Part shown: positions 22,441 to 64,000 of the stretch, piece by piece
Position numbering within the stretch: position 1 is the stretch's first letter
Layout: every line of letters starts with the position of its first letter
Source of the DNA: Flavobacterium sp.
GTDB taxonomy: Bacteria; Bacteroidota; Bacteroidia; Flavobacteriales; Flavobacteriaceae
Length of the DNA: 64,000 nucleotides
Direction: 5' to 3'
NCBI RefSeq assembly: GCF_025352425.1
Contig: NZ_JANXTI010000103.1
Span: 20,964-84,963, forward strand
Position numbers and translations under genes: made by a program
Notes under the pieces: model-generated
The model's input: the letters and a program-made list of their open reading frames with translations, nothing else
Databases searched by the model: none
What the model was told of the DNA's origin: nothing

Positions 22441-22585
22441 GTAGCAGCGAATGGTTTGTTGTAGTTTCAGCAAACCATTTTCCCGCTGTCCGTTGCAATC
22501 TGTCATTGCGAGGAACGAAGCAAATCTAATCATGATTGTCTTCGCAATGACAGGATTTCCACTACCATCGGGGCTAAAAAAGTAA
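22441..22585. repeat. composite cluster of REP-like elements (families B, C, D) upstream of leuS
   Basis: 9-bp hairpin AATGGTTTG/CAAACCATT (22450..22479). Inverted repeat TGTCATTGCGAGG...CTTCGCAATGACA (22501..22552). GGATTTCCACTACCATC motif. Related copies at 37262.., 52203.., 56470... Confidence 0.7.
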
Positions 22586-22703: not shown

Positions 22704-25589
22704 ATGAAATACTTCCACGAAAAAATCGAAGAAAAATGGCAACAGTATTGGGCTGAAAATCAAACTTTTGCTGCCTCTAATGATTCCGATAAACCAAAAT
22801 ATTATGTGCTCGACATGTTTCCATATCCATCAGGTGCCGGCTTACATGTTGGCCATCCATTAGGATATATAGCATCTGATATCGTCGCGCGTTTCAAACG
22901 TCATAAAGGTTTTAATGTGCTGCATCCGCAAGGCTACGACTCTTTTGGGCTTCCCGCAGAGCAATACGCAATTCAAACCGGGCAACATCCGGAAAAAACA
23001 ACTCGTGAAAATATTGCGCGTTACCGGGAGCAATTGGACAAAATTGGTCTTTCATTCGATTGGAGTCGTGAAGTGCGTACATCCAATCCCGATTACTACA
23101 AACATACACAGTGGATTTTCATCCAATTGTTCAATTCTTGGTATAATAAGGAAACCGATAAAGCAGAAGACATTTCAACTTTGATTTCAAATTTTGAAAT
23201 GGGAGGCAATACTAATGTTAATGCGGTTTGTGATGATAATGTTGCAATATTTTTTCCAAACGAATGGAATGCTTTTTCAGAAGAAGAAAAACAAAAAATA
23301 CTACTTCAATACCGATTAACCTACTTGGCCGAAACCGAAGTAAACTGGTGCCCAGCATTGGGAACTGTTTTGGCAAATGACGAGATCATAAACGGCGTTT
23401 CCGAGCGTGGCGGTCACACTGTTATTCGTAAAAAAATGACACAATGGTCGATGCGGATTTCAGCTTATGCCGAAAGATTATTGCAAGGATTGGAGACCAT
23501 CGATTGGAGTGAATCTATAAAAGAATCACAACGCAACTGGATTGGAAAATCTGTTGGCGCAACTGTGAAGTTCACTGTGCCGTCAAAGGATAACCATCCG
23601 CAAGCCACAATCGAAGTTTTCACAACCCGTCCTGATACCATTTTCGGAGTTACGTTTATGACCTTAGCTCCCGAGCACGAATTAGTTTCTCAAATCACAA
23701 CTGACGAACAAAATGCCGCAGTTGAAAGCTATGTAGAAGCTACGACCAAGCGCTCCGAACGCGAAAGAATGGCGGATGTAAAAACCATTTCCGGAGTTTT
23801 CACCGGAGCGTACGCCGAACATCCTTTTACTAAGGCACTAATCCCCATCTGGATTGGCGATTATGTTTTAGCAGGTTACGGAACCGGTGCTGTAATGGCT
23901 GTTCCTGCCGGGGATGAAAGGGATTATGCATTTGCAAACTTCTTCAACGGACAAAACGGAATGCCCGAAATCAAAAACATTTTCAATAAAGATATTTCTG
24001 AAGCTGCTTTTGGGAATAAGGAAGGATTCGAACTTTTAAATTCGGATTTCCTTAACGGGTTAGGCTACAAAGCAGCAACTAAAAAAATCATCGAAGAACT
24101 AGAGAATATCCATCACGGAAAAGGCAAAACCAATTACCGTTTGCGCGATGCTGTTTTCTCCCGACAAAGATATTGGGGCGAACCATTCCCGGTGTATTAT
24201 GTAAACGGAATGCCGCAAATGATTGACTCCAAATATTTACCAATCATCTTACCCGAAGTAGAAAAATACCTTCCAACCGAAGACGGACAACCACCATTAG
24301 GAAACGCGACGGATTGGGCTTGGGATTCTATCAACAACAAAATTGTCTCCAATGAACTTGTCACCCTGAGCGCAGCAGAAGGGCTATCTTCAAACGGAGT
24401 TTACCCATTAGAGTTAAACACAATGCCGGGATGGGCAGGAAGCTCCTGGTACTGGATGCGTTATATGGACGCGCACAACGATGCCGAATTTTCAAGCCAA
24501 GAAGCATTACAATACTGGGAAAGCGTAGATTTATACATTGGCGGAAGCGAGCATGCAACGGGACATTTACTATATTCCCGTTTCTGGAACAAGTTCCTAA
24601 AGGATATGGGTTACGCACCAACCGAAGAACCATTCAAAAAACTGATCAATCAGGGAATGATTTTGGGGATGAGTGCGTTTGTATATCGAAGTGAAGATTC
24701 AAAGAAATTATATTCTAAAGGATTAATTGGCACCGAAAAAGTTCACCCAATTCACGTAGATCTTGCGGTTATAAACGACATCACTAACGAATTAGACATC
24801 GAAGCTTTCAAAAATCATCCATTGTATACTGATTATAAAAATGCCGAATTCATATTAGAAAATGGCAAATACATCGTCGGCCGCGAAGTCGAAAAAATGT
24901 CCAAATCTAAATACAATGTTGTCAATCCTGACGACATCTGTAACAATTACGGTGCCGATACTTTGCGTTTATACGAAATGTTCCTTGGTCCGTTAGAGCA
25001 GGCAAAACCGTGGAATACTGCAGGAATCACAGGAGTTTCAGGCTTCCTGAAAAAACTATGGCGCCTGTATTTTGATGACAACACAGGTCTGAATGTGTCT
25101 GACGATGAACCAACAGCCGAAATGTACAAATCACTACACAAAACCATCAAAAAAGTTACCGAAGACATCGAGAATTTCTCCTTCAACACTTCAGTATCAC
25201 AATTCATGATTTGTGTAAACGAATTGGCAGCACTAAAATGCAACCACAGAAAAATATTGGAACCATTGTCAATCGTTATTTCTCCTTATGCACCACACAT
25301 TGCCGAAGAACTTTGGTCGCAATTAAGCCACGAATCCCGAAGCTTCGGGACGATTTCTACAGTTCCTTTTCCAATTGTAAATGAGAAATATTTAATGGAA
25401 AGCGAAAAAGAATATCCGGTTTCCTTCAACGGGAAAATGCGTTTTACCATCAAACTGCCATTGGATTTATCTCCAAAGCAAATAGAGGAAATCGTAATGG
25501 CAGATGAACGAACCATCAAACAATTAGACGGCAAAACACCGAATAAAGTGATTATCGTTCCCGGAAAAGTAATTAATCTGGTAGGATAA
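22704..25589 (+). CDS. leuS: leucine--tRNA ligase
   Basis: HIGH-type LHVGHP, KMSKS, and a CP1 editing domain. 961 aa. Confidence 0.97.
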   Translation: MKYFHEKIEEKWQQYWAENQTFAASNDSDKPKYYVLDMFPYPSGAGLHVGHPLGYIASDIVARFKRHKGFNVLHPQGYDSFGLPAEQYAIQTGQHPEKTTRENIARYREQLDKIGLSFDWSREVRTSNPDYYKHTQWIFIQLFNSWYNKETDKAEDISTLISNFEMGGNTNVNAVCDDNVAIFFPNEWNAFSEEEKQKILLQYRLTYLAETEVNWCPALGTVLANDEIINGVSERGGHTVIRKKMTQWSMRISAYAERLLQGLETIDWSESIKESQRNWIGKSVGATVKFTVPSKDNHPQATIEVFTTRPDTIFGVTFMTLAPEHELVSQITTDEQNAAVESYVEATTKRSERERMADVKTISGVFTGAYAEHPFTKALIPIWIGDYVLAGYGTGAVMAVPAGDERDYAFANFFNGQNGMPEIKNIFNKDISEAAFGNKEGFELLNSDFLNGLGYKAATKKIIEELENIHHGKGKTNYRLRDAVFSRQRYWGEPFPVYYVNGMPQMIDSKYLPIILPEVEKYLPTEDGQPPLGNATDWAWDSINNKIVSNELVTLSAAEGLSSNGVYPLELNTMPGWAGSSWYWMRYMDAHNDAEFSSQEALQYWESVDLYIGGSEHATGHLLYSRFWNKFLKDMGYAPTEEPFKKLINQGMILGMSAFVYRSEDSKKLYSKGLIGTEKVHPIHVDLAVINDITNELDIEAFKNHPLYTDYKNAEFILENGKYIVGREVEKMSKSKYNVVNPDDICNNYGADTLRLYEMFLGPLEQAKPWNTAGITGVSGFLKKLWRLYFDDNTGLNVSDDEPTAEMYKSLHKTIKKVTEDIENFSFNTSVSQFMICVNELAALKCNHRKILEPLSIVISPYAPHIAEELWSQLSHESRSFGTISTVPFPIVNEKYLMESEKEYPVSFNGKMRFTIKLPLDLSPKQIEEIVMADERTIKQLDGKTPNKVIIVPGKVINLVG
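24360..24385 (+). repeat. REP-like family A sequence embedded in frame in leuS (encodes VTLSAAEG)
   Basis: GTCACCCTGAGCGCAG is identical over 16 nt to the intergenic copy at 21426, followed by the shared GAAGGGCT. Confidence 0.7.
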
Positions 25590-25630
25590 ATAAAAAGCCA
25601 CACTCATTGTACTGGCTTGCGAAGTATTGA

Positions 25631-25661
25631 AGCCCAAATTCCAAAAGAGTTTGGGTTTTTT
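25631..25661 (+). terminator. probable leuS terminator
   Basis: Stem CCCAAA/TTTGGG followed by TTTTTT. Confidence 0.45.
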
Positions 25662-25712
25662 GTTGGCTATCCTAAATAACCCCAAGCATAGTCGAAATTT
25701 TATGCTCTCCAA

Positions 25713-26030
25713 TTAGGGTGGCAGACTAATCAGTTAGGGTGACAGAATAACGAACCGGGGTTTTTCTCCATTCAATAGGGGTGAATGAAGATTTAATAGG
25801 GGTTTCTTTCAATTAGTAGGGGTGATTGAGAATATAATAGGGGTGATTTAGGAGATAGGAGGGGTTTTTCCTTATTAGTTGGGGTTTTTGTCCATCTAAT
25901 AGGGGTGAAAAAGTATTTAACAGGGGTTTTTTGCGAATGATAAGGGGTTTTTTATTATTTGTTGGGGTTATTTGCGGTTAATTGGGGTTTTTATCCAATA
26001 TGTTGCGTTTTTTGTAATTGATAGGGCATT
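25713..26030 (+). repeat. phased array of 14 clear (+2 decayed) 20-21 bp units with core (T)AGGGGT(G/T)
   Basis: The core T falls at 25719, 25740, 25761, 25782, 25803, 25823, 25844, 25865, 25885, 25906, 25927, 25948, 25968 and 25988. Degenerate units lie near 26008 and 26027. The 13-nt inter-core segments are A/T-rich and not conserved. Confidence 0.9.
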
Positions 26031-26164
26031 ATAATGATAAGAAATAACCAATACAATCCAGAAAATACGAATTTCATCGAATGCTTTTAACAATCTATTT
26101 CCCGCAGGCCTCATTATTCGCGAGTTTATTCAAGATATTTAACCCTAAAAGAATAATTTTTTCG

Positions 26165-26172
26165 TAAGTTTG
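26165..26172 (+). promoter_or_regulatory. -7 box TAAGTTTG for ORF 26195
   Basis: TAnnTTTG match 22 nt upstream of the ATG. Confidence 0.4.
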
Positions 26173-26194
26173 AATATCTAAATACCACAAATAG

Positions 26195-26773
26195 ATGATT
26201 ATACTTTATACAAACGAAGAATTTCGGGAAATCGAAACTGATTTTCCATTAAAATTTAGGTACGCTGTTTCCAACAGAGGACGGCTCATAAGTTTTTCTG
26301 AGAACTTAAAAGATGCAAACGAATTAAAAGGATCTTATTCAGATGGCTATAAGACCTTTCGTTACGGAAAGTCGGTGAATGGAAAAAGAAGTTACAAGAC
26401 AGTATTTATATACAAACTGGTAGCACAACTTTTTATACCAAAAACTTCTGAAGAGCAACAATATGTATTGCATTTAGATTATGTTCGGGATAATGACTTG
26501 ATAAAAAATCTAAAATGGGCAACATACGAAGAGAAGCTTGCACACTATAAGAAAAGCCCTCATGTAATTAATTCAATGAGAAATCTAATTGAGCATAACA
26601 TAAAAGCAGATGGGAGAAAATTAACTACTACAAAAGTTATTTATCTAAAAAAGCTGCTGAATAAACCCAATCAAAATACGAGGATGAAGATGTTAGCGAA
26701 ACAATTTGGAATAAGTGAAATGCAGATTAGCCGAATTAAACGCGGCGAAAACTGGGGGCACATTAAAGTTTAA
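26195..26773 (+). CDS. NUMOD4 / HNH(_3)-like endonuclease-family protein with C-terminal HTH
   Basis: NUMOD4-like EEFREIETDFPLKFRYAVSNRGRLISF. HNH-like VLHLDYVRDNDLIKNLKWAT. C-terminal FGISEMQISRIKRGENWGHI. Confidence 0.6.
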   Translation: MIILYTNEEFREIETDFPLKFRYAVSNRGRLISFSENLKDANELKGSYSDGYKTFRYGKSVNGKRSYKTVFIYKLVAQLFIPKTSEEQQYVLHLDYVRDNDLIKNLKWATYEEKLAHYKKSPHVINSMRNLIEHNIKADGRKLTTTKVIYLKKLLNKPNQNTRMKMLAKQFGISEMQISRIKRGENWGHIKV

Positions 26774-37261: not shown

Positions 37262-37320
37262 TCCTTTAGCCCTGATTGCAGTGGCACGAAGTAGAACGGA
37301 AAGCAGGAAAATGGCTCACC
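37262..37320. repeat. REP-like elements, families C and D (reverse orientation)
   Basis: CCCTGATTGCAGTGG (reverse complement CCACTGCAATCAGGG) and ACGGAAAGCAGGAAAATGGCTC (reverse complement GAGCCATTTTCCTGCTTTCCGT) match copies at 52270, 22475 and 56477. Confidence 0.7.
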
Positions 37321-52205: not shown

Positions 52206-52300
52206 TGGGCGTTTCCCGCCGCGGCGGGTCGGGCTTTCCGTTACAATCTTTTTTTCGTTCCTCAAAAAAGGATTTCCACTGCAATCCCTAACGCGGTCAA
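52203..52300. repeat. REP-like cluster (14-bp GC palindrome + two family C units)
   Basis: CCCGCCGCGGCGGG (52215..52228), GGGCTTTCCGTTACAATC (52231..52248) and GGATTTCCACTGCAATCCC (52270..52288). Confidence 0.75.
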
Positions 52301-52348
52301 ATGATTTATAGAAATAAATTTTAAACTCATTAACTAAGCTACATAGTA

Positions 52349-56469: not shown

Positions 56470-56575
56470 ATTTTGGGAGCTATTTCCCGCTGTTCACTAT
56501 ATCTTTTCCTTTTAGATTGCTTCGTCCCTCGCAATGACAAAAAGAAAAAGGATGCCGTTCCCATCCGGGCTAGGG
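56470..56575. repeat. REP-like cluster (families D, B reverse, C-like)
   Basis: GAGCTATTTCCCGCTGTTC (56477..56495), GATTGCTTCGTCCCTCGCAATGACA (56515..56539) and GGATGCCGTTCCCATCCGGGCTAGGG. Confidence 0.7.
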
Positions 56576-60056: not shown

Positions 60057-60079
60057 TTTACACTCTATAATAATACTTA

Positions 60080-60108
60080 AAGCCATCTCAATTGAGGTGG
60101 CTTTTTTA
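60080..60108 (+). terminator. rho-independent terminator
   Basis: Stem AGCCATCTC/GAGGTGGCT (one G-U pair), loop AATT, T-run. Confidence 0.75.
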
Positions 60109-60150
60109 TTTTTGTTGATAACTAAAATTGATTTCTTGGTCGCTAAAATG

Positions 60151-60158
60151 TATTTTTG
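60151..60158 (+). promoter_or_regulatory. -7 box TATTTTTG for dnaE
   Basis: TAnnTTTG match 31 nt upstream of ATG 60190. Confidence 0.4.
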
Positions 60159-60189
60159 AAACATTACTTTTCAAAATCCTAACCTCAAT

Positions 60190-63100
60190 ATGTATTTAAT
60201 TTTCGATACCGAAACAACGGGATTGCCAAGAAATTGGTCAGCGCCAATTACAGATACTGGCAATTGGCCTAGATGCATTCAGATTGCCTGGCAATTGCAT
60301 GACGAGTTGGGAAATCTTATTGAACATCAGGATTATTTAGTAAAACCTGAAGGCTTTAATATTCCTTTTGATGCTGAAAGAATACATGGAATTTCCACGG
60401 AATTAGCCGAAGCGAATGGAATAGGATTACAGGAAGTTCTCGAAAAATTCAATATAGCTTTATCGAAATCTAAATTTATTGTTGGACAAAATGTTGGCTT
60501 TGATGTAAATATTATTGGTTGCGAATTTCACAGAATGGGAATGCAATCAACAATGGGTTCAATGCCTATTCTGGATACTTGTACCGAAGTTACCGCGTCG
60601 CTTTTGAGATTGCCTGGTGGTCGTGGCGGAAAATTCAAATTACCAACCTTAACCGAATTACATCAGTATCTTTTTGGGGTTCCATTCTCGGATGCGCATA
60701 ACGCTACTGCCGATGTGGAAGCAACGACACGTTGTTTTTTAGAATTGATAAAGCGACAGGTTTTCACCAAAGAAGAATTAGATGTTGCCGCTGATTATTT
60801 CGATCGATTTAATAAAAACAATCCTCAGGAAATTCAGCTTATCGGATTGAAACACATCAATCTTAAACAGGCTTCCGAAGAAATCCGCAAACAGTTTCAA
60901 AAGAAAGAAGAAGTTACTCCTGACCAGAAAGAGAAACAAGTTCATCACACCTTAGCGGATGTTGATTTTGTTCACTTGCACAATCACACACAATTTTCAG
61001 TATTACAATCCACAATTAGTGTAGCGGATTTGGTAAAAGCAGCGGTTGAAAATAAAATGCCTGCGGTTGCCATGACTGATCACGCGAATTTGATGGGAGC
61101 GTTCCATTTTGTACGTGATATTTTATACCATAATAAATCCGCTCAGGCCAAAAATAAGTTAGCCGCCGAAAACGGAGAAAATCCAACAGAAACTATTATC
61201 AAACCTATTGTAGGTTGTGAGTTTTACGTCTGTGATGATTTAAAAGACAAGTCCAGAAAAGACAATGGCTACCAAATCGTCTTCTTAGCCAAAACCAAAA
61301 AAGGCTATCATAATCTGGCGAAATTATCTTCCATTGCTTATACCGAAGGATTTTATTATGTCCCAAGGATTGACAGAAAAGCCATTCAGGAATACAAAGA
61401 AGATCTCATTGTGTTGTCAGGAAATTTATATGGCGAAATTCCGAGCAAAATTTTAAACATTGGTGAAAACCAAGCCGAAGAAGCCTTGCTCTGGTGGAAA
61501 CAGGAATTTAAAGATGATTTCTACCTCGAATTAACGCGCCATAATCAGGAAGATGAAAACCGCGTGAACGATTCGTTAATAACTTTGGCAAAAAAGCATA
61601 AGGTGAAAACGGTTGCCACAAATAATGTTTTTTATATCAATAAAGAAGATTCAAATGCCCATGATATTCTATTGTGTGTTCGTGATGGTGAAAAACAATC
61701 TACTCCAATTGGCCGAGGCCGAGGCTTTCGATACGGTTTAGCCAATCAGGAATATTATTTCAAGTCGGCTGAAGAAATGAAAAAGGTCTTTCATGATTTA
61801 CCTGAAGCGATTACCAATACGGAAGAAATCGTCAATAAAATTGAAATATACGATTTGTCCCGTGATGTTTTATTGCCCAAATTTGATATTCCCAGTGAAT
61901 TTTTAATTGCCGAAGATGAAGCAGATAAAGGCAAACGTGGCGAAAATAAATACTTACATCATTTAACTTATGAAGGCGCTAAAAAAAGATACCCAGAAAT
62001 CACTCTAGAAATTCAGCAGCGTATCGACTTTGAGTTATTAACGATTGAAAATTCAGGCTATCCGGGTTATTTCCTAATCGTTCAGGATTTCATTGCTGAA
62101 GCCAGAAGAATGGATGTTTCTGTTGGACCTGGCCGTGGTTCAGCTGCGGGTTCGGTTGTGGCTTATTGTCTCGGAATTACCAACATCGATCCGCTGATGT
62201 ACAATCTGCTTTTTGAGCGATTCCTAAATCCGGACAGGGTTTCACTTCCCGATATTGATATCGATTTTGATGATGAAGGACGTAGCAAAGTAATGGATTA
62301 TGTAATTCAGAAATACGGTTCCAAACAAGTGGCGCAAATCATTACTTACGGAACGATGGCAACCAAATCGAGTATTCGTGACACTGCGAGAGTTATGGAT
62401 TTACCACTTTTTGAAGCTGATAAAGTTGCTAAATTAATTCCGGGATTAATGCCTTCAAAATGGAATTTGGCCCGACTCTTATCCGAAGATGAAGCAACAA
62501 TTAAAAAGGTATTACGACCGGAAGAGTTTGACAGAGTAAAAGAATTAATTTCACTTTCCAAAGTAGGGAATTTATGTTCCGATACTATAAACCAGGCAAA
62601 ATTTCTGGAAGGAAACCTAAGAAACACTGGAATTCACGCATGCGGAGTTATCATCACGCCAAGCGATATTACCAATTTTGTTCCTGTAGCAACTGCAAAA
62701 GATTCGGATTTGTATGTTACCCAATTTGATAACTCTGTCGTAGAAAGCGCCGGATTATTAAAGATGGATTTCTTGGGATTGAAGACTCTAACGTTAATAA
62801 AAGATACTGTAAAACTGGTAAAATATAGAACAGGAAAAGATTTAAATCCAGATGAATTTCCGATTGACGATGTTAAGACCTATGAGCTTTTTCAACGTGG
62901 TGAAACAGTTGGGATTTTCCAGTATGAAAGTGCCGGAATGCAAAAGTATATGAAGGAATTGAAGCCAACAGTTTTTGGAGATTTAATTGCCATGAATGCG
63001 TTGTATCGTCCCGGGCCAATTGCTTATATCCCAAGTTTTATCAAACGAAAAAATGGAGAAGAAGATATCACTTACGATATTGAAGCATGCGAGGAATTGC

Positions 63101-64000
63101 TGAAAGAAACTTACGGGATTACTGTTTACCAAGAACAGGTAATGCTTTTGTCTCAAAAGTTGGCCGATTTCTCAAAAGGAGATGCCGATGTTTTGCGTAA
63201 GGCAATGGGAAAAAAGCAGAAAGATGTTTTGGATAAAATGAAACCAAAATTTATCTCACAAGCAGAAGCCAAAGGACATTCAGCCGAAAAGTTGGAAAAA
63301 ATATGGAAAGACTGGGAAGCATTTGCCGAATATGCCTTCAATAAATCACACTCGACTTGCTATGCTTGGATTGCGTATCAAACGGCCTATTTAAAAGCCA
63401 ATTATCCGGCGGAATACATGGCGGCGGTTTTATCCAATAACATGAGTGACATCAAGCAGGTTTCGTTCTTTATGGAAGAATGCAAGCGAATGGGATTGGA
63501 AGTTCTTGGTCCTGATGTCAACGAATCGTTTTATAAATTTACGGTAAACGATAACTATGCCGTTCGTTTCGGAATGGGAGCAGTCAAAGGTGTTGGAGCC
63601 AATGCTGTGGATACGATTGTTCAAAGCAGAAAAGATGAACCTTATAAATCAATATTTGATTTAGCAAAGAAGATTGATTTGCGTGCTGCCAATAAAAAAG
63701 CATTCGAAAGTCTGGCACTTGCTGGTGGATTTGATTGTTTTCAAAATACACATCGTGCGCAATATTTCCACATTGAAGGCGAAGGGGTTACGTTTCTTGA
63801 AAAAGCAGTACGTTATGGTTCCAAATTTCAGGAGAATGAAAATTCGTCACAGGTAAGTTTATTTGGAGATGCCAGCGAAGTTCAGATTGCAGAACCTATT
63901 GTTCCACCATGCGATGAATGGAGTACGATGGAAAAATTAGCCAAAGAAAAAGAAGTAGTTGGAATTTATATTTCGGGTCATCCGTTAGACGATTACCGTT
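60190..64000 (+). CDS. dnaE: DNA polymerase III alpha subunit with fused N-terminal DEDDh 3'-5' exonuclease domain; 3' end outside window
   Basis: My own translation of frame 1, which stays open to the window edge and is therefore missing from the ORF track. Motifs: MYLIFDTETTGL (Exo I), VGQNVGFDVNI (Exo II), HNATADVEAT (Exo III), PHP domain VHLHNHTQFS, polymerase core GPGRGSAAGS...LPDIDIDF, and FNKSHS. Confidence 0.93.
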   Translation, partial: MYLIFDTETTGLPRNWSAPITDTGNWPRCIQIAWQLHDELGNLIEHQDYLVKPEGFNIPFDAERIHGISTELAEANGIGLQEVLEKFNIALSKSKFIVGQNVGFDVNIIGCEFHRMGMQSTMGSMPILDTCTEVTASLLRLPGGRGGKFKLPTLTELHQYLFGVPFSDAHNATADVEATTRCFLELIKRQVFTKEELDVAADYFDRFNKNNPQEIQLIGLKHINLKQASEEIRKQFQKKEEVTPDQKEKQVHHTLADVDFVHLHNHTQFSVLQSTISVADLVKAAVENKMPAVAMTDHANLMGAFHFVRDILYHNKSAQAKNKLAAENGENPTETIIKPIVGCEFYVCDDLKDKSRKDNGYQIVFLAKTKKGYHNLAKLSSIAYTEGFYYVPRIDRKAIQEYKEDLIVLSGNLYGEIPSKILNIGENQAEEALLWWKQEFKDDFYLELTRHNQEDENRVNDSLITLAKKHKVKTVATNNVFYINKEDSNAHDILLCVRDGEKQSTPIGRGRGFRYGLANQEYYFKSAEEMKKVFHDLPEAITNTEEIVNKIEIYDLSRDVLLPKFDIPSEFLIAEDEADKGKRGENKYLHHLTYEGAKKRYPEITLEIQQRIDFELLTIENSGYPGYFLIVQDFIAEARRMDVSVGPGRGSAAGSVVAYCLGITNIDPLMYNLLFERFLNPDRVSLPDIDIDFDDEGRSKVMDYVIQKYGSKQVAQIITYGTMATKSSIRDTARVMDLPLFEADKVAKLIPGLMPSKWNLARLLSEDEATIKKVLRPEEFDRVKELISLSKVGNLCSDTINQAKFLEGNLRNTGIHACGVIITPSDITNFVPVATAKDSDLYVTQFDNSVVESAGLLKMDFLGLKTLTLIKDTVKLVKYRTGKDLNPDEFPIDDVKTYELFQRGETVGIFQYESAGMQKYMKELKPTVFGDLIAMNALYRPGPIAYIPSFIKRKNGEEDITYDIEACEELLKETYGITVYQEQVMLLSQKLADFSKGDADVLRKAMGKKQKDVLDKMKPKFISQAEAKGHSAEKLEKIWKDWEAFAEYAFNKSHSTCYAWIAYQTAYLKANYPAEYMAAVLSNNMSDIKQVSFFMEECKRMGLEVLGPDVNESFYKFTVNDNYAVRFGMGAVKGVGANAVDTIVQSRKDEPYKSIFDLAKKIDLRAANKKAFESLALAGGFDCFQNTHRAQYFHIEGEGVTFLEKAVRYGSKFQENENSSQVSLFGDASEVQIAEPIVPPCDEWSTMEKLAKEKEVVGIYISGHPLDDYR

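Follow-up and report, generated by a model that had tools for sequence, protein, structure and literature searches.

Type Ib and type II partition centromeres, such as parC of R1 or pSK41 and parH of TP228, are composed of phased short cores that are separated by partly variable, AT-rich spacers and assemble into a wrapped nucleoprotein complex. Iterons, in turn, are tandem direct repeats of approximately 17–22 bp which adjoin a rep gene and are conserved over the entire unit, while CRISPR arrays alternate repeats of 23–55 bp with unique spacers of comparable length and are accompanied by cas genes. In sponge RNAs of the CsrB/RsmZ type, GGA motifs are displayed in the conserved hairpin loops of a defined transcript and follow each other at irregular spacing. 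LytTR-type operators, recognized by AgrA, ComE or SilA, combine a 9–10-bp direct repeat with an 11–12-bp AT-rich spacer into a 21-bp period, such that the protomers are placed on one face of the DNA (PMC2766830). Two further intergenic repeat families have to be considered, namely BrickBuilt of Porphyromonas gingivalis, a MITE with an internal 23-nt minisatellite (PMC4596501), and the TAACTGA direct repeats found just upstream of start codons (PMC4679880).

The array described here lies in a 64-kb stretch of DNA, in the following called the window, which is chromosomal DNA of a Flavobacterium sp.; the LeuS encoded in it equals a Flavobacterium sp. protein in NCBI, and it contains four Flavo-1 RNAs. 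The array spans approximately 280 bp 3' of the leucyl-tRNA synthetase gene leuS, and limited checks of the literature yielded no description of it. With iterons it shares ~20-bp tandem direct repeats in one orientation, its repeats of 20 or 21 bp falling within the iteron range. However, only half of each unit is conserved, compared to the entire unit in iterons: spacer identity between units is 0.39–0.46 in these arrays, but mostly 0.86–1.0 in the iteron-type arrays recovered in the same scans. Furthermore, its flanks are leuS, a Zn peptidase, an HNH-like ORF and AsnC rather than a rep gene. The original prediction had named a plasmid iteron as one option, which does not agree with the chromosomal location of the locus (an orthologue resides in the 3.35-Mb record CP109999), the missing rep gene and units that are not near-identical. 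A comparison of the array, and of the protein p226 encoded at a second array locus (see below), with 72,556 plasmids and 50,697 phages gave no match. The phased short cores and partly variable AT-rich spacers also recall partition centromeres, another of the options proposed, but here parA, parM, parR or parG are not adjacent, the array is found between housekeeping genes, and close relatives lack it. No rep gene and no par gene, be it for a partition ATPase or a centromere-binding protein, was found beside any of the six arrays analysed in this study, which argues against an iteron as well as a partition site.

In its geometry, with a motif from -8 to +2 and an A/T-rich remainder, the array unit is LytTR-operator-like, and most positions of what we take to be the LytTR consensus would accommodate its A-R-T-W-G-G-G part, a lead only. 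LytTR operators, however, comprise two, rarely three, repeats near -60 of a promoter, whereas 10–14 repeats are spread over 200–280 bp in the arrays. These lie 75 to ~480 bp upstream of start codons, in contrast to the LytTR pairs just upstream of a promoter, and their best-conserved bases are GGGT instead of the GTT of LytTR sites. Like the CsrB/RsmZ sponge RNAs and the TAACTGA repeats, the array presents many copies of a short motif on one strand with variable sequence between them; it differs from the sponge RNAs in its strict spacing and in that no conserved fold or transcript signals were found. A CRISPR array was considered and rejected, as the conserved part measures 11 bp, the spacer ~10 bp, and cas genes are missing. 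Reading through the array, we saw no cluster of DnaA boxes.

Architecture of the array in the window

The array and the elements surrounding it are arranged as follows.

22704–25589: leuS
25633–25661, + strand: leuS intrinsic terminator, read from the sequence (CCCAAA at 25633–25638, 11-nt loop, TTTGGG at 25650–25655, T-run)
25656–25663, no strand: left one of two direct repeats of 8 bp, TTTTTTGT, on either side of the inserted segment
25664–25710, + strand: leader of 47 nt, ~80% identical to the leader in the relative L122 and different in L242
25674–25685: inverted unit-like copy AAATAACCCCAA inside the leader, equal in 12 of 14 bases to the reverse complement of unit 13; decayed in L122
25711–25995, + strand: array of 14 units, motif A(-8) R t w R-GGG-T(0) K, mean step 20.69 bp
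25719, 25740, 25761, 25782, 25803, 25823, 25844, 25865, 25885, 25906, 25927, 25948, 25968 and 25988, + strand: the T positions of the 14 cores
25996–26007, + strand: tail, including most of a decayed 15th unit, TTGCGT (26003–26008)
26008–26015, no strand: right copy of TTTTTTGT
26195–26773, + strand: next ORF, 192 aa

When we re-read the sequence, all 14 T positions of the GGG(G)T cores given in the original prediction proved exact, as did the steps between them (21, 21, 21, 21, 20, 21, 21, 20, 21, 21, 21, 20 and 20 bp). The distances of ~50 nt from the terminator T-run to the array and of ~135 nt from 26030 to the TAAGTTTG -7 box (26165–26172) were likewise right. No ORF of at least 50 aa covers the array, which occupies the longest non-coding gap of the window (25590–26194, 605 bp). 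An apparent gap of 2.3 kb at 60057–62345 is not non-coding, because a long ORF begins there (60190–64000, + strand; start MYLIFDTETTG, exonuclease-like N-terminus), which is missing from the ORF listing because it runs off the window end.

On the + strand, 12 of the 17 GGGGT occurrences in the 64-kb window fall inside the array, while the - strand of the array has none. A chain of 14 GGGT at steps of 19–22 bp occurs once, the longest chain in 200 shuffles being 3, and TRF assigns periods of 21, 41, 62 and 83 to the array. The base composition had been estimated at ~80 G and ~12 C; we counted 93 G and 25 C in 25713–26030. The strand asymmetry itself is present, with a GC skew of up to 0.67 over 200 bp, but a C-poverty of the whole array is not, since the cores alone cause the skew: the non-core positions of the 72 units in the six arrays contain 173 C and 133 G. 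Of two decayed units proposed beyond the last core, the one near 26008 (TTGCGT) is plausible; it lies one 20-bp step past the last core, extends by one base into the right repeat and is kept in L122, as is CATTGCGTTTTTT in the tail. The other, near 26027, falls outside the inserted segment and is unsupported. At the opposite end, the terminator 3' arm AGTTTGGGT resembles the array motif, its T at 25656 being located 63 bp (3 x 21) before the first core, and the left repeat overlaps the terminator T-run.

The motif common to both array loci, derived from 72 units in six arrays, reads A-R-t-w-R-GGG-T-K. A occupies -8 in 66 of the 72 units, followed by R at -7, a T-rich position at -6, W at -5 and R at -4 (56 G, 16 A), then GGG, T at 0 and K at +1. 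Conservation is highest at GGG, T and A(-8) and not in the A/T tracts; AGGG accounts for 22% of the cores. According to the original prediction only the core is conserved and the intervals differ from unit to unit, which has to be revised, for the conserved unit exceeds the core and the spacers fall into three recurring classes, each present at both locus types. Class a is T-type, 20 bp long, and has the 3' end AAGTT; class b is T-type, 21 bp, with the 3' end C.CTCAATW; class c is G-type, 21 bp, with the sequence GAAAGA.AATTCARTW. They follow each other in these orders:

window (13 spacers): ccbcaccabcbaa
L122: ccbbcacbcbaa
L242: ccbcabcabcaa
L276 and L337: abcabcabcb
L339: acabcabca

These orders identify a b-c-a trimer of 62 bp as the building block, in agreement with the TRF period of 62. 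All 66 steps in the six arrays measure 20 or 21 bp, and the period fitted to the individual arrays is 20.62–20.79 bp. The proposal that the cores lie on one face of the helix was borne out, the phase coherence R being at least 0.95 at 10.3–10.4 bp per turn in every array. The order of 20- and 21-bp steps was not significantly more even than in permutations, and the common mean period could partly be a product of the shared ancestry of the 62-bp unit. Outside the arrays the motif is almost absent: a PWM built from it has one match elsewhere in the 64-kb window, and we obtained three isolated matches on both strands of ~150 kb of Flavobacterium DNA, where no isolated single or paired sites marking a regulon were seen. 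By this measure the motif appears to be dedicated to the arrays.

The leuS locus in related Flavobacterium genomes

Two relatives carry an array at the same place. L122, a Flavobacterium MAG found by a genome pattern scan, has it after the same leuS terminator. L242 is Flavobacterium sp. N1994 (CP109999), whose LeuS is 90% identical and whose array of 13 units runs in steps of 21, 21, 21, 21, 20, 21, 21, 20, 21, 21, 20 and 20 bp, the pattern of the window. L242 and the loci L337 and L339 are unbiased examples, because they were located via protein homologue look-ups and not by a DNA pattern. When the window is compared with N1994, identity at third codon positions has dropped to 0.49 in the neighbouring ORF and non-core array positions are 59% identical, yet all 13 colinear cores, the position-specific 20/21 pattern and every spacer length are kept. 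The preservation of cores and spacing despite such heavy divergence therefore indicates purifying selection on both.

The array is hence dispensable, since it is missing from an otherwise unchanged gene order in F. cheonhonense, F. sangjuense and three metagenomic relatives. The original prediction had taken absence or loss of phasing in close relatives with the same flanking genes as evidence against it, and the outcome is mixed: the array is absent at five of eight loci, but conserved and phased wherever it is present. It is real, under selection and confined to a narrow set of Flavobacterium lineages.

A comparison with the array-less relative L311, which shares the leuS terminator hairpin with L122 and L242, delineates the segment in question. 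In L311 the terminator is directly followed by GTAACCAATT, and the empty site reads TTTGGGATTTTTTGTAACCAATT, with one copy of the repeat. The filled site of the window corresponds to a 344-bp segment (25664–26007) with TTTTTTGT on each side; in L122, GTAACCAATTG comes after the right repeat, just as it comes immediately after the terminator in the empty site. An empty site together with an 8-bp flanking repeat keeps open some form of mobility. However, because the repeat includes the T-run, it is accounted for no less well by slippage or by a deletion between repeats. Judged by the 192-aa ORF, the window has a nearer relative in L311 (82% identity) than in N1994 (77%), which bears the array, so that the segment was either lost precisely or gained more than once.

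The original prediction had also linked the array to ORF 26195. This link did not hold up, as genes intervene between the two in relatives (a 61-aa gene and a Zn-peptidase gene in L122, the Zn-peptidase gene only in N1994) and the ORF is present in four relatives without the array. Similarly, the AsnC/Lrp gene and the HNH-like ORF also occur where the array is missing. The array thus goes with the leuS flank and not with ORF 26195.

Several other features of this region deserve mention. Comparing window positions 26016–26194 with L122 340–1525, the 61-aa gene and the Zn_peptidase_2 gene have been lost from the window, with the junction just after AATTGA. The 192-aa ORF itself (26195–26773, + strand) is homing-endonuclease-like, combining a NUMOD4/HNH region with an HTH at its C-terminus (phrog_59, E = 6.7e-22; PADLOC HEase, E = 1.6e-8), and looks domesticated, because its position is kept across Flavobacterium species, including array-less ones. 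Flavo-1 RNA (RF01705) has four copies in the 64 kb, at 22475–22579 (- strand), 37264–37314 (+ strand), 52223–52302 (- strand) and 56479–56575 (- strand), a density more like that of a dispersed repeat than of a single sRNA gene. One copy lies just upstream of leuS and is kept there in N1994 (L242 2821–2880, - strand).

Arrays upstream of the p226 gene

Arrays of the same kind exist at a second, unrelated locus. A metagenome scan recovered the Flavobacterium locus L276 with 11 units of the leuS-locus kind, and homologues of the 226-aa protein p226 at 91% and 67% identity are accompanied by arrays of 11 and 10 units, respectively. In these three lineages the array is placed 170–190 bp upstream of the p226 gene and its G strand reads away from that gene, while the other flank varies between the 3' end of an O-methyltransferase gene and the start of an epimerase gene. 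Motif, period and the unit classes a, b and c are common to the p226 and leuS arrays. The orientation relative to transcription is not: the G strand has the same sense as its neighbours at the leuS locus, and as the epimerase gene in L339, but is antisense to both neighbours in L276 and L337. Every array lies within ~75–200 bp upstream of at least one gene start, as would suit a regulatory site.

Among the matches, homologues of p226, of which there are at least 166, occur only in Flavobacterium, mostly on short contigs. The protein is predicted to be all-helical (pLDDT 87); searches of Pfam, NCBIfam, PADLOC, PHROG, PDB sequences and PDB folds returned no match, and its predicted structure shows no recognisable DNA-binding fold. 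Kinship between p226 and the 192-aa ORF was rejected for want of meaningful similarity (E = 0.01, single comparison).

At L276 2407–2423, compared with L332 3126–3142, similarity to the closest relatives ends 16 nt before the stop codon of the O-methyltransferase gene, and the last five codons of this gene encode unchanged residues with different codons. Beyond this junction follow the array and the 226-aa gene, which are missing there in the closest relatives. On this sequence comparison, the junction bears the signature of a recombination or integration that rebuilt the end of the gene; it may also stem from a chimeric assembly. Downstream of p226 (L341 1717–3617; L276 3700–3932), genes are found for a 483-aa protein with a weak DUF4329 match, a DUF6705 protein and a secreted repeat protein, which would fit a variable region of the toxin/immunity type.

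Candidate explanations and further repeat families

The original prediction listed a cooperative multi-site protein-binding array among its options, and this is the reading that fits the data best, with protein binding and cooperativity being what we infer from the sequences. As motif and spacing are kept at two unrelated Flavobacterium loci, the array would most likely be a docking array for a DNA-binding protein. More specifically, our leading, if still tentative, explanation is that it acts at the DNA level and offers 10–14 putative sites, helically phased, to one sequence-specific DNA-binding protein or complex. Each unit would consist of an 11-bp recognition motif, A-R-t-w-R-GGG-T-K-w, and ~10 bp of A/T-rich spacer. 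The unit repeat of 20 or 21 bp, on average 20.7 bp, corresponds to two turns at ~10.35 bp per turn, and the sites therefore all lie on the same side of the helix; the three unit classes combine into a b-c-a super-unit that extends over 62 bp, or six turns. Protomers, once bound, might then contact each other along one face, or wrap the DNA into a large nucleoprotein complex. Sitting in an intergenic region upstream of promoters, such a complex could serve as an upstream regulatory scaffold, as an insulator or as a titration pad.

How far could the sequence features be explained without a bound protein at the DNA level? One rival assumes that the G strand is transcribed, by read-through from leuS or from an unrecognised promoter, and that the RNA, acting like CsrB/RsmZ or a TRAP-binding leader, shows 10–14 single-stranded (A)RUWGGGGU motifs at fixed pitch and thereby sequesters an RNA-binding protein, an sRNA or the anti-Shine-Dalgarno region. 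All cores are indeed on one strand, and read-through is plausible because the leuS terminator is weak (6-bp stem, 11-nt loop). Two window units fold into good hairpins with AUAGGGG in a 7-nt loop, adjacent spacers on the + strand pair slightly better than non-adjacent ones (p = 0.016, with units that are not independent), and c-class units retain UCA-N7-UGA. These hairpins do not recur as a conserved structure, though: RNAalifold on ten 62-nt super-units gave -0.01 kcal/mol without covariation or compensatory pairs, a position-pair test detected no covariation beyond the fixed TCA..TGA of the c units, pairing beyond 3 bp is no better than the shuffled expectation, and the MFE of the whole-array + strand has a z-score of 0.08 against shuffles. 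Rfam has no match in or near any array, and motif scans, which cannot prove that transcription is absent, did not locate a consistently placed Bacteroidetes -33/-7 promoter (TTG/TAnnTTTG) or intrinsic terminator. Moreover, the spacers are not C-poor, the strict 20/21 spacing is not expected of a sponge, and the arrays are oriented differently towards the flanking transcription units at the two loci. The sponge put forward by the original prediction, which had built on C-poverty, thus finds neither a promoter and terminator nor a conserved hairpin or covariation, C being depleted in the cores only and the orientation varying; we regard an RNA-level function, which would leave an unstructured decoy transcript displaying GGGGU motifs, as improbable. 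Flavo-1 RNA was rejected as a pairing partner of such a transcript, its CCCC being located inside a stem.

It is also unlikely, at a similar level, that the array is a non-autonomous mobile minisatellite comparable to BrickBuilt, the cores of which bind the protein that moves or maintains it without gain for the host. The parallels are considerable. Both belong to the same phylum, are intergenic, comprise leader, minisatellite and tail, and have units with a conserved and a variable half; the flanking duplications of BrickBuilt are variable, and one of its copies also adjoins leuS (PMC4596501). The leuS-locus segment is discrete, with 344 bp between 8-bp TTTTTTGT flanks, its leader, array and tail parts are as in BrickBuilt (PMC4596501), and L311 offers a clean empty site; L311 being nearer to the window than N1994 points to precise loss or independent gain. 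The same unit classes at two unrelated loci, and the short p226 contigs, which are expected near repeats, fit mobility as well. On the other hand, IS5-like terminal inverted repeats, leaders and tails that are homologous from copy to copy, and a number of ~19 copies per genome are seen in BrickBuilt only. In the array, no terminal inverted repeats were found apart from the internal inverted unit copy (12/14, decayed in L122), leader and tail share no homology between the two locus types, and a transposase or integrase is not nearby. The 64-kb window has one array, only three isolated motif matches were obtained outside arrays in ~150 kb of Flavobacterium DNA, and position and step pattern have been stably inherited over deep divergence. 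A strict BrickBuilt-type MITE was accordingly rejected, the array having neither terminal inverted repeats nor a common leader and tail, and a dispersed REP element is not what the array is.

For a purely structural role, in the absence of a specific binder, two variants come into question: intrinsic curvature, caused by runs of T4-6 or A4-5 that follow the cores in helical phase, or a propensity to form G-quadruplexes or R-loops, with effects on transcription or replication nearby. T-runs or GAAA runs are found directly 3' of the cores and for this reason share their 10.35-bp phase, and the GC skew of up to 0.67 over 200 bp likewise favours a structural role. However, the strongest conservation falls on GGG, T and A(-8) rather than on the A/T tracts, and the varying orientation relative to transcription argues against a directional R-loop role. 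A canonical quadruplex forms from four G-runs with loops of ~1–7 nt. The G-runs of the array are 16–17 nt apart, far beyond such a loop, and the AGGG cores, 22% of the total, further weaken the G-quadruplex tract that the original prediction had given as an alternative. Overall, we consider a structural role very unlikely. Least probable of all, and barely credible, is a functionless tandem repeat (VNTR) that drifts neutrally. While units have visibly been gained and lost between the window, L122 and L242, and five relatives have no array, neutral decay is incompatible with the retention of all 13 cores out of 13, of A(-8) and of all spacer lengths when other array positions are 39–59% and synonymous sites 49% identical. 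Concerted evolution would homogenise entire units and not the cores alone, and the conservation of cores and spacing already contradicts neutrality.

Returning to the phased protein-binding array, it may be worth spelling out a more specific, though doubtful, version. The arrays would represent a hitherto unrecognised, Flavobacterium-specific kind of chromosomal landing pad, whose tripartite 62-bp b-c-a units either wind around a dedicated protein or nucleate its assembly into a filament, this protein maybe being the co-inherited fold-orphan p226; the resulting large nucleoprotein body would insulate or switch the promoters beside it, and such a pad could relocate from one intergenic position to another. 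Gene regulation and chromosome organisation in Bacteroidota are poorly charted, and 10–14 sites in strict helical register, under purifying selection, at two unrelated loci and with a dedicated motif point to an undescribed, dedicated DNA-binding factor. If the partner were the p226 family, a hypothetical protein that is widespread in the genus would thereby be assigned a function. With Flavobacterium sp. N1994, an array-bearing strain with a complete genome is available in culture.

The pattern scans that contributed to the set of arrays mainly returned other repeat families. In the genome-contig scan, strict 20-bp repeats and G-rich simple sequence far outnumbered everything else and L122 was the one true relative, and a stricter pattern applied to metagenomes gave 65 loci, L276 being the only family member. 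A 4-core scan of viral contigs mostly retrieved strict 21-bp coding repeats, and a motif-based viral scan only arrays of near-identical units that belong to other families. The loci L124, L129, L131, L153 and L200, together with L269 and ~13 metagenome loci like it, are low-GC Bacillota/Tenericutes contigs, in which four or five 20-bp units, each made up of AGGGGTGCGTAA and 8 variable nt, are followed by TTGTATCAAAATAGGTCA; the AGGGGTGCGTAA units look like a set of iterons conserved at the replication origin of a plasmid or phage family. In the viral contigs L036 (4551–4678, - strand) and L030 (2410–2498, - strand), 5–7 units of TTGGGGTAAAAT(T)AAGACAAA are located directly upstream of a gene starting with MPRKYVDYSKT, and these units are a different GGGGT iteron family.
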